DNA of 64,000 nucleotides from a virus: positions 12,168 through 76,167 of IMG/VR virus record IMGVR_UViG_3300046804_003617. One strand, written 5' to 3'. The notes beneath the pieces are model-generated. The model was not told the DNA's origin, searched no databases, and was given only the letters and a program-made list of their open reading frames with translations. The position numbers and the translations under genes were made by a program. Shown here in pieces: positions 8,716 through 59,766 of the stretch (its first letter is position 1; every line of letters starts with the position of its first letter).

Positions 8716-11700
8716 TTATTTATTCTTCAGCTCCAATAATTGCGATTTGACTTCTTTTAATTCTGCTGATAGTTCTTTTACTGCGGCAATAAGTGCGGCG
8801 GTTAATTTACCATATTCCAATCCAGAAATATTACCATCTTTGTCTTTGTTGACGATTGTTGGTATCAGTTCATTTACTTCTTCTGCGATCATGCCTATGT
8901 CGTTGGTTACATCCTTATTTTTCCAATCGAATGTGACTGGACGCAACTTTTGTATCATATCCATACCATTTGTCAAATCTTTAATATTTGTCTTGAATCT
9001 TCTGGATGATGTGCTGTTAAATGATACTGCGGTAACTGCTCCGCTTGAATCAAGAACAATGTTTCCTCCACCAACTCCCACTGTTCCGCTGAATGATCCT
9101 CCACCGGTACAATCAAATCCTCCGGTTCCTACTTCCGCTCTTCCGCAAACAATAGTGGAGGCTCCTCCACCAAACTGGAATTTGCTACTTGCATATTTGA
9201 ATTCTGCACCAGCAAGTGTAAGTACTCCTAGATCATTTAGTTTTGTAGAATACCCAGATCCAAGTTGAATAGAGGCGGCGGCACCTCCTCCGGTCAATAG
9301 AAGAGGATACGAACCGGTCAATCCAATCGTTGCTTGGTTTGTTGATGCATCGATACTCAACCCATTTCCTGTTATCTTTGCTGCGGAATTTGTTGCGCTC
9401 GATAATCCCCCCGCTCCTATGTTCCATCCGGCAATAGTTCCTGAATTTGTCGCGGTCAACGACGTTGCCGTGACAGTTCCCGATATTGTTGCTGATGTGG
9501 CGGTCAATGCGCCTCCAGAAGTGACTTGGAATGTTCCGCTGTTTATATTCAATGTTCCACCAGTTATGGAAACATCCGCACAGCTTATGTTTCCGTTACT
9601 ATTCAACGTCGTAGAACCGGCAGTCAATGTTGTGGACCCAATGGTCCATCCACCAATACTGCCGCCGCTATTGGCGTTTAAGGTAGAAACCGTCAGAGTA
9701 CCATTACTGTTTAGTGTGGTAGAGCCGCCGGTCAAGCTGCTTGCGCCTATGGTCCATCCACCAATACTACCACCACTGCTTGCGTTTAATGTTGAAACTG
9801 TAAGCGTTCCGTTGCTATTTAGAGTCGTGGAACCGCCCGTCAACGTACTTGCACCAATAGTCCACCCACCGATACTACCAGCACCGGCGGTAACGGTGCC
9901 ACTTACAGTAGCAGATGACAAATTCGCCGAAGTCGCAGTCAATATTCCAGACGGACTTACACTGAAATTCGTAGAACCTGTGATAGAACCATTACTATTT
10001 AATGTCAATGCGCCTCCAGTTATGGTACTACTTCCAATAGTCCATCCACCAATAGTACCGCTTGTTGAAGTTATCTTTCCGGAAATATCCGCCGCACTCG
10101 CGGTTACACGGCCATTTGAATCAACTCTAAACGCCCCGCTTCCTATATTTAATGTACCACCAGTGATAGTACCTCCGCTTATGGTTGGAGAATTTATTGT
10201 GAGTGCAGCGTTTATTGTTCCGGCATTGATCTTGTTTGCATCCAAATTGCGAATATATGCCTGATCCATATACACTCCACTAATGTCAACGAGGAATGGA
10301 GTAATAACACTTCCTTCATCTCCCAGAGTATTCACAACCTTAAACGTATCCGCTTGTATTATAAATGAAGAGGACGCGACGCTCGATGCTATTTTATATC
10401 CAGCAACTCTGTTTCCGGCTGTGACTGCCAGTACATACTGGGCTTTCAAACTTACTACAGAACCGGATACCGCCGCTGATGTGGTCTGTGTCGTTGATAT
10501 ACTTGCGCTTAAATTTGATCCACTTATATTAAGTGCGCTTGTCAAGTTGTTGATGCTAGTTGCGGCTGACGAACTGTTGTTCGTGACTGTGTTGCTGAGA
10601 CTATTAATGTTTGATTGTAAAGTAGAGCCGCTCGTATTAAGAGCGCTCGTCAAGTTGTTGATGCTGGTCGCGGCTGAAGCACTATTTGTGGTAAGAGTAC
10701 TGTTTGTCGTGGTAATGCTCGAAGCCAGAGACGAACTGTTTGTGGTGATCGAACTACCCAGGCTGTCCATGCGGGTCGCCGCAGACGAACTGTTCGTGGT
10801 GACCGTGGTGCTCAGGCTATTGATGTTCCCCTGCAAGGTCGAACCGCTTGTGTTGAGGGCGCTCGTCAAGTTGTTGATGCTGGTCGCGGCTGAAGCACTA
10901 TTTGTTGTGATAGTACTGTTTGTCGTGGTGATACTTGATGCCAACGACGAGCTATTTGTCGTGATTGAACTACTTAAACTGTCCATTCTAGTAGCCGCAG
11001 ACGAACTGTTATTTGTGACAGTGTTATTAACAGTGTTTATATTGGACTGCAACGTTGACCCGCTGGTATTAAGAGCACTGGTCAAGTTATTGATGCTGGT
11101 CGCCGCTGAGGCACTATTCGTGGTAACGGTGCTATTCGTTGTTGTTATGCTGGAGGCTAGAGAAGAACTGTTTGTTGTAATTGAACTACTCAGACTATCC
11201 ATACGAGTAGCAGCCGAAGAACTGTTGTTTGTGACAGTTGTGCTCAGACTATTGATGTTCGATTGTAATGTCGAACCACTTGTATTCAACGCGCTTGTTA
11301 AATTATTTATGCTGGTCGCAGCAGATGCGCTGTTTGTCGTGAGAGTGCTATTAGTTGTTGTGATACTGGATGCCAACGAAGAACTGTTTGTGGTGATCGA
11401 ACTGCTCAGAGTATCCATCCGAGTAGCTGCGCTTGAACTGTTATTCGTGACCGTGGTACTTAGACTATTAATATTCGATTGCAATGTCGAACCACTGGTA
11501 TTCAACGCACTCGTCAGATTATTGATACTGGTTGCTGCGGACGAACTGTTCGTCGTCACGGTACTATTTGTCGTTGTGATGCTGGATGCGAGTGAAGCGC
11601 TATTTGTAGTAATAGAACTATTCAAGCTGTCCATTCTTGTGGCTGCTGAAGAGCTATTATTCGTGACGGTTGTACTTAAGCTGTTAATATTTGACTGAAG

Positions 11701-57315: not shown

Positions 57316-59766
57316 TTATGGAGTTATAGTCACATCTATGGAATATGCACTTCCGGTATAAAGAGTTGCACCGGCAGTAGAGAATGGGCCAGCTGGATAT
57401 GTGATCCAGTACAATTCAAATCTATATACACCAGGTTCTGGTGGGAATATGGTTTGATATTGGTTGTTCCACGCGATTGCTCTCTGTTCTGTCCCACCGG
57501 GTAATGCTCCCCACGTTGCGGAAGAAGTATAATATGTCAACGCTTTGCAACGTAATCTATAATATGGAGACGAAAGAACGGACGAATCTGTACAATATAT
57601 ATATGGAGGATTGCTATACTTAAATGTCAATGTTGTTCCCGTTGAACCACTCAGATATACATTAGGATGATTTGATGCAGTATATGGAGGAGGTGTCACC
57701 GGAGTGAAGCCAGATGCTGTCGCGATTGACATTGTGGCAACTTGCCAAGGAGCAGATTGAACGGTTGCTGTATATCCACTGTCATAAGTTACCCAATACA
57801 GTTCTGCTGGCCATATACCTACACCCGGAGGGATAATTTCTGAATAATTATTATCCCAGGCAACGGATCTTTGTTGAGAATCCGACCCAAATGCGGCGGT
57901 TAGTTCAGTTCCAACCGTTCCCGCTATTTTACAACGAAGTTTGTATCTGTAAGAACTCAGCACCGAAGAATTTCCTGTGTAAACATACGCAGGATTGTTC
58001 ATCCCGAACGTATTGGTCGATAGGTATACATCATTGCCGGGATATGGAGGTGGGCTGAATGTGGACGCTGTTGCCACACTCATCGTTACCGTCGTTCTTG
58101 GTCCTACGTTCAAGACATTATAGTTTCCATAAATATCCGGCGTTGTATCATATTCCACATAATACAATTCGGTTTTATATTTTCCTACCGGAGGATTGTC
58201 CAATGGAGCATAATTCGTGTTGAATCCTGCATCCGTTCTTGTTGCTCTTTGTTCCAATCCCTGATTTGGCATCACGTTTGTCAGTTCGGTCGCTTTGACT
58301 CGCAATTTCCATTTTGGCAAGGACGTAATTGTACTGTCCGTGGTAAACACATATGAACTGTCGTTTAGCTTGAAGCTGTTTGAACTTAGATATATGCCAG
58401 GAGCCAACGGAGGAGTTTGTGTAGGAGTCGATGTTGTGGTAGGCGTTGGTGTTGGAAGAGCCTGAGATGGTGTAATAGTAATTGTTGGTGTAGGTGTAGG
58501 AGTAGGCGAAGGTGGTATGTAATTTATTACTCCATACTTGGATGTATATCCTTGGAAACTGAATGTGCAAGGTGCGGCGCTGGCACTATAGAATACATAT
58601 AAACTTCTGTCATTGTGTGCTACTCCCAATTCAAGCAGAGGTAATACGTTTCTGCCGTATGATGCACTTACCAACGGAACTCTGTTGTTGTTGAACGAAT
58701 AAATTCCACTGTCACCTGGTACAGCAACGGCGGCGGTTGAACCGATGGACAATAATGGTTTTCCAGGTGAGTAAACAAAGCAATCAGTCAATACATAATT
58801 TTCCGGCAACACATCTCTCAATGTTCCATCTCCAAGATATCCTGAAGTTCCATCACTGAAAAATATCAAATTGAAATGTTTTGTTGGACTTGTTGCCTGA
58901 GAACCGGATCTTGGCAATAGCATATGCCCGTCACCAATTGAATCCAGCCACTGCGTTGGACCAGGATTCAAGTTTTCTGGTACATATGATGCCACCAAAG
59001 TAGAATCGTTTGATCTCACCCCTCCATAAAAATGTTGAAGCACCTTTGTTTCACTGGCGGCGGCGTTGAAAACATGAGCCTCATAAATCACGGAATTAAT
59101 ATTCCAATGACATCCGTCTTTTCCATTTCCCATCGTTACATATGAACTGCTGATATAACTTGGAGCACTTGACACTTGACCAAAGATCTGCCCGTTTATA
59201 TAGAACTTGAATATGTCCGAAGTGTCTTTTGTGATCGTTGCTTCGAATACTCTGTCCGGATATGTTTTGATGAAATCGACATATTCGATTATTTTCTCGT
59301 TGGTTCCATCATTGACATAAGCAATCAAACTGCTGGATGCCACGCCGATATATGCTCTGCTTCCGCTGTCCGACATACCAACAACTTGCGAACCCACACC
59401 AAACAATATTCTTTTGTCGGTATCTGTCAATAATGCGTCCGATGGAATGAATGCGCGAACGCTGAGAGTAAATTCGTTGCCAAGATTTTGGGCCGATCCA
59501 TAGCAATACATTCCCAAATCTCCACACGGAGAATAGTTTTCGGCAAATGACAATCCATTTGATGTTTGATTCCCTCTTTGTGGGATGGTAAAATTTGCAA
59601 ATCCACCAGACACGACATACTCGGCCAAATCGGCGGCTGAAATTTTCTTGGTTTCTCCGGTTGGACTGCTAGTCAATTGACTAACGTCCACTATAGGAAG
59701 CCAGTCTCCGTGTGCGACGTACTGAGAAGTAAGCGTGCGTAATTCAGTTGTTTTCTGGTTGGCCAT
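57316..59766 (-). CDS. Multidomain probable virion protein: LamG-like domain, PT linker, three tandem C-terminal domains
   Basis: FKFYING..INSVIYEAHVFN (LamG-like); (PT)n; three YLS..LR[VC]K..QR..PP..G....ELY repeats; late motif at 59786-59793. Confidence 0.65.
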   Translation of the reverse strand: MANQKTTELRTLTSQYVAHGDWLPIVDVSQLTSSPTGETKKISAADLAEYVVSGGFANFTIPQRGNQTSNGLSFAENYSPCGDLGMYCYGSAQNLGNEFTLSVRAFIPSDALLTDTDKRILFGVGSQVVGMSDSGSRAYIGVASSSLIAYVNDGTNEKIIEYVDFIKTYPDRVFEATITKDTSDIFKFYINGQIFGQVSSAPSYISSSYVTMGNGKDGCHWNINSVIYEAHVFNAAASETKVLQHFYGGVRSNDSTLVASYVPENLNPGPTQWLDSIGDGHMLLPRSGSQATSPTKHFNLIFFSDGTSGYLGDGTLRDVLPENYVLTDCFVYSPGKPLLSIGSTAAVAVPGDSGIYSFNNNRVPLVSASYGRNVLPLLELGVAHNDRSLYVFYSASAAPCTFSFQGYTSKYGVINYIPPSPTPTPTPTITITPSQALPTPTPTTTSTPTQTPPLAPGIYLSSNSFKLNDSSYVFTTDSTITSLPKWKLRVKATELTNVMPNQGLEQRATRTDAGFNTNYAPLDNPPVGKYKTELYYVEYDTTPDIYGNYNVLNVGPRTTVTMSVATASTFSPPPYPGNDVYLSTNTFGMNNPAYVYTGNSSVLSSYRYKLRCKIAGTVGTELTAAFGSDSQQRSVAWDNNYSEIIPPGVGIWPAELYWVTYDSGYTATVQSAPWQVATMSIATASGFTPVTPPPYTASNHPNVYLSGSTGTTLTFKYSNPPYIYCTDSSVLSSPYYRLRCKALTYYTSSATWGALPGGTEQRAIAWNNQYQTIFPPEPGVYRFELYWITYPAGPFSTAGATLYTGSAYSIDVTITP

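Follow-up and report, generated by a model that had tools for sequence, protein, structure and literature searches.

This report concerns a 64,000-nucleotide stretch of viral DNA (positions 12,168 to 76,167 of the IMG/VR record IMGVR_UViG_3300046804_003617, hereafter the window) and a three-residue motif, [ST]-[GA]-S followed by a hydrophobic residue, that is dispersed over its virion proteins. The motif is directional and restricted to those virion proteins, of unrelated folds, that face outward, where it constitutes a real, selected, surface-specific tag; as judged by sequence comparison, it is a trait under selection in a clade of large T4-like phages from aquatic habitats. The best single explanation is tentatively taken to be O-glycosylation by phage enzymes, with a probability somewhat short of even.

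The window is the right-hand part of one viral contig of 76,167 bp, in which every gene lies on the minus strand. The contig belongs to a T4-like myophage, with the gp20 portal, the gp21-type protease and the terminase within its first 12 kb, and gp25 and a gp6/J-like wedge at 34944-37306 of the window. The IMG/VR genome G007 (297,258 bp, CheckV 100%) is collinear with the whole contig over ∼45 genes, at 60-89% amino acid identity; therefore, the contig is a fragment of a ∼300-kb jumbo phage, of which about three quarters of the genome is missing. Four complete motif-rich relatives were compared: G007, G001 (296 kb), and the cultured Microcystis phage Mel-JY01 (190 kb) and Flavobacterium phage immuto (160 kb).

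Motif statistics

Regarding its abundance, the motif was counted as [ST][GAS]S, with expected values taken from whole-protein shuffles. It occurred 26 times (4.7 expected, z 10) in the 1077-residue FG-GAP β-propeller protein of the distal baseplate/fibre module (23586..26819; Pfam FG-GAP_2, E 1e-25), 16 times (4.2 expected, z 5.8) in a 1559-residue peripheral baseplate protein (28650..33329), 13 times (3.2 expected, z 5.6) in a 447-residue protein that lies directly downstream of gp6 and has a jelly-roll/carbohydrate-binding-module-like plus immunoglobulin-like fold (33544..34887), and 13 times (4.8 expected, z 3.9) in an 816-residue protein with Pro-Thr linkers, located upstream of the GT60 cluster described below (57316..59766). 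These values bear out the hand counts of the first-pass annotation (about 25, 16, 12 and 13), as well as its statement that SbcCD and DnaK have essentially none: the SbcCD-like nuclease (18541..21747), used as a non-virion negative control, and DnaK (47606-49513) had no motif at all. As for the other virion proteins, a 364-residue baseplate/fibre protein (26862..27956) had 5 sites against 1.8 expected, and a 695-residue protein adjoining the fibre (16420..18507) had a weak excess (6 vs 2.6, z 2.2); the gp6-like inner baseplate wedge (34944..36899), an internal negative control, had one motif with 0.8 expected, and one against 3.3 over four genomes.

The homologues of these proteins were enriched as well. 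Those of the 1559-residue protein, found in all four relatives, totaled 50 motifs against 9.1 expected, with 12-13 of the 16 sites retained at ∼61% identity; the 364-residue family had 26 against 5.7 over the genomes, the G007 homologue of the 816-residue protein had 9 against 2.5, and a 1012-residue open reading frame (ORF) of G001, homologous to the 695-residue protein, had 22 against 4.4. The 447-residue protein combined conserved motif columns with lineage-specific insertions packed with the motif. In Mel-JY01 (L082:28999-36168), the 364-residue family has grown to four or five paralogues in tandem, each enriched in the motif. The FG-GAP protein also has a weak dockerin-like Ca-binding segment (Pfam E 8.5e-5); an architecture of this kind, built around an FG-GAP β-propeller, is unusual among the tail proteins of phages.

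Ser makes up 9-14% of the target proteins, a richness that would suit an artefact of composition or low complexity; this explanation was refuted. The excess survived not only global shuffling, a comparison already suggested when the motif was first described, but also shuffling inside blocks of 20 and 40 residues, and it persisted against a dipeptide-preserving first-order Markov (Markov-1) expectation, with 60 occurrences seen against 25.3 (p 3e-9); moreover, permuted patterns were found at ∼1.1 times expectation, for example 1.09 times for [GAS][ST]S. Within the seven motif-bearing proteins, none of the other 8000 tripeptides exceeded expectation as strongly as SGS (26 vs 4.1, p 4e-13), and TGS, TAS and SAS were likewise among the ten most enriched; Thr at the third position gave no enrichment ([ST][GAS]T, 0.98 times). 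There was also none for Gly, Ala, Asn or Asp at position 1 or for Gly, Asn or Asp at position 3 (GGS, AGS, NGS, DGS, SGG, SGN). NGS, DGS, GGS, SGT and SGN even fell below the Markov-1 expectation and, together with the Markov-1 excess of the motif, this indicates a true three-position unit. The second and third most enriched tripeptides were TPT and PTP.

At the flanks, aromatic or hydrophobic residues prevailed at −2 and −1 and Leu, Ile, Tyr or Val at +1, in keeping with the aromatic or aliphatic residue noticed after the motif at first sight, and Lys, Arg and Gln were depleted upstream. A DNA-level repeat was rejected as the source of the motif on the basis of the diverse codons at its sites; shared domains and internal duplication were rejected by all-vs-all BLASTP, which detected no sequence homology among the motif-rich proteins and agreed with the initial impression that the proteins carrying the motif have unrelated folds.

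Surface specificity and selection

The distribution of the motif was evaluated over protein classes. Six of these were taken as outer (capsid, sheath, a head-completion-like protein and three post-gp6 families), while the inner and non-virion classes comprised terminase, portal, protease, scaffold, tube, hub, tape measure, gp25, gp6, a 209-residue family, primase and SbcCD. The six outer classes had 170 motifs against 38.4 expected over four genomes, that is, four to five times chance; over three genomes, the major capsid protein contributed 13 against 4.0 and the sheath 26 against 8.4. In both of these proteins the sites occupied the least conserved outer regions, and their positions differed from genome to genome. 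The inner and non-virion classes had 10 against 31.7, a deficit that could reflect avoidance of the tag; the ratio is lower than that of T4-like controls (0.6-1.3 times expectation).

As for its occurrence in other phages, the post-gp6 proteins showed the excess again in Mel-JY01, in immuto and in the majority of 80 related loci of IMG/VR. It was missing from T4, where baseplate, fibre, capsid and sheath proteins together had 13 motifs against ∼21 expected, and from the baseplate modules of cyanophage S-CAM1 (13 vs 14.9) and Vibrio phage ValKK3 (14 vs 11.1), and these three phages led us to reject the motif as a generic property of fibres and baseplates. Within the clade itself, one genome was motif-poor: LR756508 (484 kb) has the syntenic baseplate module and was assigned to the clade by a five-protein tree, which supported its exact position weakly (50-60). 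None of its 400 ORFs was motif-enriched, and its six outer classes had 9 motifs against 4.3, equal to 2.2 sites per 1000 residues vs 8.0-12.6 in the four motif-rich genomes. Literature searches returned no account of this motif.

Selection was apparent from 11 relatives of the FG-GAP protein (57-71% identity): the pattern was kept at 82% of the sites and the exact tripeptide at 51%, against 30-33% for control tripeptides. Each member of the family had 26-34 sites, distributed over 53 alignment columns of which 21 were conserved and 16 sporadic, and the other motif proteins gave similar retention results. The pattern is retained more than the exact identity and the number of sites is steady; therefore, selection is directed at the degenerate pattern and at how often it occurs.

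Regarding the location of the sites, in the model of the 447-residue protein (predicted local distance difference test, pLDDT, 69) all 13 fell in loops or turns, nine of them in low-confidence insertions, while SGS431 formed a hairpin turn with a pLDDT of 90. The FG-GAP model was poor (pLDDT 46), and the eight sites with pLDDT of at least 50 were all in inter-strand turns or at strand edges. Exposure was deduced from turn location and from the outer-versus-inner protein class, not from computed accessibility.

This location is what an unmodified structural turn motif would produce, with Phi-[ST]-[GA]-S-Phi as the tight turn preferred by the clade between the β-strands of exposed β-sandwich, propeller and fibre domains, inherited and then reused. 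The placement of all 13 and all 8 sites in turns or at strand edges argues for it, as do the hydrophobic or aromatic flanks, the near invariance of several columns across 65 homologues (for example, TGS in 62 of 65), and the fact that some sites belong to FG-GAP or SHAEG repeats. However, the best turn formers, NGS, DGS and GGS, are depleted instead of enriched, and position 3 is the only one that excludes Thr; the same folds do without the motif in T4, S-CAM1, ValKK3 and the clade member LR756508; and the motif appears independently in at least five unrelated folds, yet only in outward-facing proteins, the inner ones being depleted. On balance, a turn motif of this kind is the main rival of glycosylation, possible but somewhat unlikely.

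The clade-core glycosyltransferases

Only 39 genes are common to Mel-JY01, G001 and immuto, and four of them form one syntenic glycosyltransferase (GT) cluster, which consists of a split or fused GT4 (A+B), the GT4 gene C and the GT2 gene D, and is also present in G007. The motif-poor LR756508 keeps A+B and lacks C, D and both the TibC-type and GT60 enzymes treated below, so that genes C and D occur in four of four motif-rich genomes and in none of the one motif-poor relative. Gene C had no other record in a collection of 50,697 phages; it had no match in the partial contigs G002-G006 either, which are fragments and therefore uninformative. The idea that the motif would co-occur with particular GTs across related phages is favored by genes C and D, through this single contrast, and fails for the TibC-type enzyme and GT60.

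The fused core GT4 had its best PDB match, at E 0.0016, in B736L of the chlorovirus PBCV-1. An analogy of the core GT4 pair with GtfA/GtfB was considered and dropped, as neither was among the PDB matches, which were generic GT4 enzymes with E of at least 0.0016. Published analysis of immuto DNA by liquid chromatography-mass spectrometry detected only fdPreQ1 in addition to the canonical dA, dC and dT (10.1101/2023.04.13.536721), and for this reason the core GTs are unlikely to modify DNA in immuto.

The same gene set bears on the possibility that the motif serves another surface function, either as the site of a different Ser modification (phosphorylation, O-acetylation or phospho-linked groups) or as the docking point of a clade-wide partner, such as a decoration, chaperone or assembly protein. 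The statistics speak for selection on a Ser-containing surface pattern and do not identify its chemistry, and the contig also carries methyltransferase and carbamoyltransferase domains. However, the 39 clade-core genes include four GT genes and no kinase, acetyltransferase or dedicated decoration gene, and FkbM and carbamoyltransferase domains are typical of sugar-tailoring enzymes, which makes this alternative quite unlikely.

The TibC-type enzyme and the Ser-rich fibre

A second candidate lies next to the window, as a gene for 705 residues at contig positions 9680-11797, which ends 370 bp outside the window, upstream of it. Its product fuses a GT4 domain with a complete homologue of TibC, a member of the autotransporter heptosyltransferase family (BAHT). 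The BAHT domain matched TibC with a phmmer E of 1.8e-74 (PDB 4rb4/4rap); its residues 21-374 aligned with 33-386 of the 406-residue TibC, so that the homology is full-length and includes the N-terminal β-barrel and the GT-B core. The catalytic base Asp110 and the sugar-binding Thr226, Lys230, Arg286 and Trp305 are kept (segments GD, QST-QAKYW, EER and SGLSW), together with the four iron-finger Cys (339, 342, 358 and 370; C-H-G-C ... W-C-P-R ... F-E-C). The position that governs heptose stereoselectivity, Pro300 in TibC and Ser294 in Aah, is Gly in the phage protein, from which the donor sugar is not inferable. TibC is a cytoplasmic heptosyltransferase that modifies Ser, and not Thr, at N-S-G-G and T-S-A-A in TibA (PMC4358343), and its preference for Ser in small-residue contexts agrees with the Ser-only third position of the motif. 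No description of phage BAHTs was found in literature searches.

As for its distribution, BAHT was present in this contig, G007, Mel-JY01 and two partial contigs; it was absent from the complete genomes of G001 and immuto, despite SGS, TGS, SAS and TAS at 3-5 times expectation there. In G007, a second, truncated TibC-like ORF (179752-180627; 302 residues, 49% identity over the C-lobe) adjoins an FkbM-like gene.

The neighborhood of BAHT points to a different acceptor. A giant Ser-rich or (G-[ST]-[SN])n collagen-like ORF lay within 10 kb of BAHT in 29 of 57 viral contigs, against 3 of 80 control loci (Fisher p 7e-11, for loci that were not dereplicated), and Mel-JY01 has the same pairing; the neighborhoods in the BAHT-bearing megaphages LR756501 and LR756504 were uninformative. 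No autotransporter substrate gene was found beside phage BAHTs, the recurrent neighbor being the Ser-rich or collagen-like phage fibre. Because of this recurrence, which is analogous to tibC-tibA, BAHT is most plausibly paired with Ser-rich fibres, among them the one encoded at 8716..16389.

This Ser/Thr-rich fibre of 2557 residues has a Pfam Mtd_N domain at the N-terminus and a Peptidase_S74 chaperone at the C-terminus. It contains ∼100 nearly uncharged repeats of 18 residues, each with [NT]-S-[SAG]-S. The first-pass annotation had placed one motif in each 18-mer; the periodicity stood, with 97 [NTDA]S[SAG]S sites at a modal spacing of 18 residues, but the excess over composition was small (133 vs 109, z 2.6) because the fibre is 25% Ser. 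GGW-type repeats occur in the fibre too, beside the S74 intramolecular chaperone.

GT60 and the putative reader of the scattered motif

The other candidate is a GT60-family (PF11397) polypeptide GlcNAc-transferase-like enzyme of 434 residues (54832..56136; 253 bits vs a cutoff of 21, E 6e-75), which was found only here, in G001 and in G007, and was absent from Mel-JY01 and immuto. It shares one operon, 78-87% identical in G007, with an HtrL_YibB-like protein, a carbamoyltransferase and a weak glucosyltransferase-like ORF of 224 residues (50864..54835; Pfam, PHROG). Three Pro-Thr-linker proteins (56192-59766) are followed, in the same direction, by GT60, the weak glucosyltransferase-like ORF, the carbamoyltransferase and the HtrL-like protein (50864-56136); these proteins and the GT60 block are possibly a separate mucin-type system. 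By homology, then, the TibC-type BAHT and GT60 are bona fide protein O-glycosyltransferase homologues encoded by the phage.

That the GTs seen in the window read the scattered motif was implicit in the first-pass annotation, and the attributes of BAHT and GT60 would suit such a role: the complete BAHT homologue is encoded in the structural region and belongs to a family that is Ser-specific in E. coli, while GT60 enzymes act on polypeptides (Pfam PF11397). Nevertheless, the proposal is largely refuted and must be deemed improbable. G001 and immuto have the same tripeptide signature without BAHT, Mel-JY01 and immuto have it without GT60, and BAHT keeps company with giant fibres instead (29 of 57 against 3 of 80); since both enzymes are absent from relatives with equally strong enrichment, they cannot have shaped the scattered motif. 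What stands of the idea of a glycosylation sequon is that the motif is real, specific, selected and outward-facing and that O-GT homologues are encoded; what does not is the assignment of the window GT60 and the adjacent BAHT as its readers.

Proposed mechanism

The preferred explanation is that [S/T]-[G/A]-S plus a hydrophobic residue is a selected surface tag placed in exposed turns of the capsid insertion domain, the outer sheath domains, the peripheral baseplate and the fibres, and that each motif site would be an O-glycosylation acceptor. Soluble glycosyltransferases encoded by the phage would work in the cytoplasm of the host, either ahead of assembly or while it proceeds, to yield a glycan-coated particle. 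The clade-core GT4/GT2 pair (genes C and D) appears the likeliest reader of the scattered motif, with BAHT and GT60 serving other acceptors: the fusion of the TibC-type serine heptosyltransferase with GT4 would more probably decorate the 18-residue Ser repeats of the giant fibre, and GT60 would more probably target Pro-Thr linkers.

Several points weigh against this explanation. The attachment of a sugar, the acceptor Ser and the enzyme are all inferred, and plausible on that footing. The co-occurrence with C and D is one contrast, four genomes against one, that amounts to a single evolutionary event, and the placement of LR756508 has the low support already given (50-60). Genes C and D are a generic GT4 and GT2, with a best PDB match at E 0.0016 and a protein acceptor that is only presumed; the 76-kb contig does not include the core cluster, which this phage is taken to have because G007 does. 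Finally, the hydrophobic or aromatic flanks and the location of every placeable site at an inter-strand turn or strand edge are as expected from a structural turn motif; some sites lie within known structural repeats, namely, the FG-GAP loops here and SHAEG-type repeats in the immuto tail spike; and the exposure of the sites is judged from turn location and protein class.

Other genes of the contig

Two more GT genes were identified in the window: a 661-residue GT4 fused to an FkbM methyltransferase (460..2445; Pfam, 53% identity in G007), and a 390-residue GT8-like glycosyltransferase (6968..8140; PF01501 E 1.3e-5, just above cutoff). The initial estimate of about eight GT domains was somewhat high, as Pfam recognized GT4, GT8, HtrL_YibB and GT60 in the window, one more ORF had only the weak PHROG match, and the GT4-TibC fusion is outside.

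The genes for 213 and 964 residues at 2476-6044 adjoin the terminase and are conserved clade-wide; the window copies had no match in Pfam or PHROGs. They were considered as clade-wide modification enzymes and dropped, because the immuto homologue of the larger one is annotated as a NadR-type nicotinamide mononucleotide adenylyltransferase and lies beside a nucleotidase. The window also encodes a peptide deformylase, a full-length DnaK (Hsp70, E 1e-259), Hsp20 and PhoH (41926-42573, 47606-49976 and 59850-60692).

Relation to known systems and significance

To our knowledge, mycobacteriophages are essentially the only phages whose own enzymes have been demonstrated to glycosylate the virion; their glycosyltransferases reportedly modify the phages' own structural proteins in the cytoplasm to give a glycan-coated virion. 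The acceptor sites in those siphophages of Actinobacteria are reportedly extensions at the C-termini of capsid and tail-tube subunits, and the modification is demonstrated; here, a dispersed three-residue motif marks many outer proteins of T4-like myophages, and its modification is predicted from sequence. The mycobacteriophage study, by Freeman et al. (2023, Cell Host Microbe), is cited in PMC12582341.

The general protein O-glycosylation of Bacteroidetes uses the sequon D-[S/T]-[A/I/L/V/M/T] and is periplasmic and host-encoded. It resembles the present case in having a short O-linked sequon scattered over unrelated proteins, and the relative immuto infects Flavobacterium; it differs in that the phage motif has no Asp and has Ser at position 3. 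This phage clade also infects cyanobacteria, and therefore the reader must be phage-encoded.

The pairs TibC-TibA and Aah-AIDA-I of E. coli (PDB 4rap/4rb4; PMC4358343) are comparable to the phage BAHT in that the full-length homologue of the contig retains the iron-finger Cys as well as the residues for catalysis (Asp) and sugar binding, is a cytoplasmic enzyme like TibC, and is encoded near a long repeat protein, with repeats of 18 residues here and 19 in AIDA-I. Unlike them, the phage enzyme carries an N-terminal GT4 fusion, has Gly at position 300, and neighbors a phage fibre instead of an autotransporter; it is also absent from some relatives with the scattered motif, and so is not its reader. 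The chlorovirus PBCV-1 encodes cytoplasmic machinery of its own that attaches glycans to non-canonical sites of its major capsid protein (PMC4691112); this is a eukaryotic virus with N-linked glycans, and the likeness of the core GT4 to B736L is weak and generic for GT4.

In conclusion, it is conceivable, if rather doubtful as a whole, that a widespread clade of large and jumbo T4-like phages of aquatic habitats covers its virions with O-glycans at sequon-directed sites by means of its own cytoplasmic enzymes, with as many as three kinds of acceptor on one particle: [ST]-[GA]-S turns on capsid, sheath and baseplate for the core GT4/GT2 pair, Ser-rich 18-residue or collagen-like fibre repeats for the TibC-type heptosyltransferase, and Pro-Thr linkers for GT60. 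Non-surface proteins would then avoid the tag. The cultured relatives Mel-JY01 and immuto make the question of glycosylation directly testable. If virion glycosylation is confirmed here, abundant myophages of aquatic habitats, with cyanobacteria and Flavobacteria as hosts, would carry on their virions an O-glycosylation code readable from the genome, and the autotransporter heptosyltransferase family would have a new natural role, on phage fibres. Glycan-shielded surfaces, and hence adsorption, stability and recognition by antibodies or grazers, would then be predictable from sequence.

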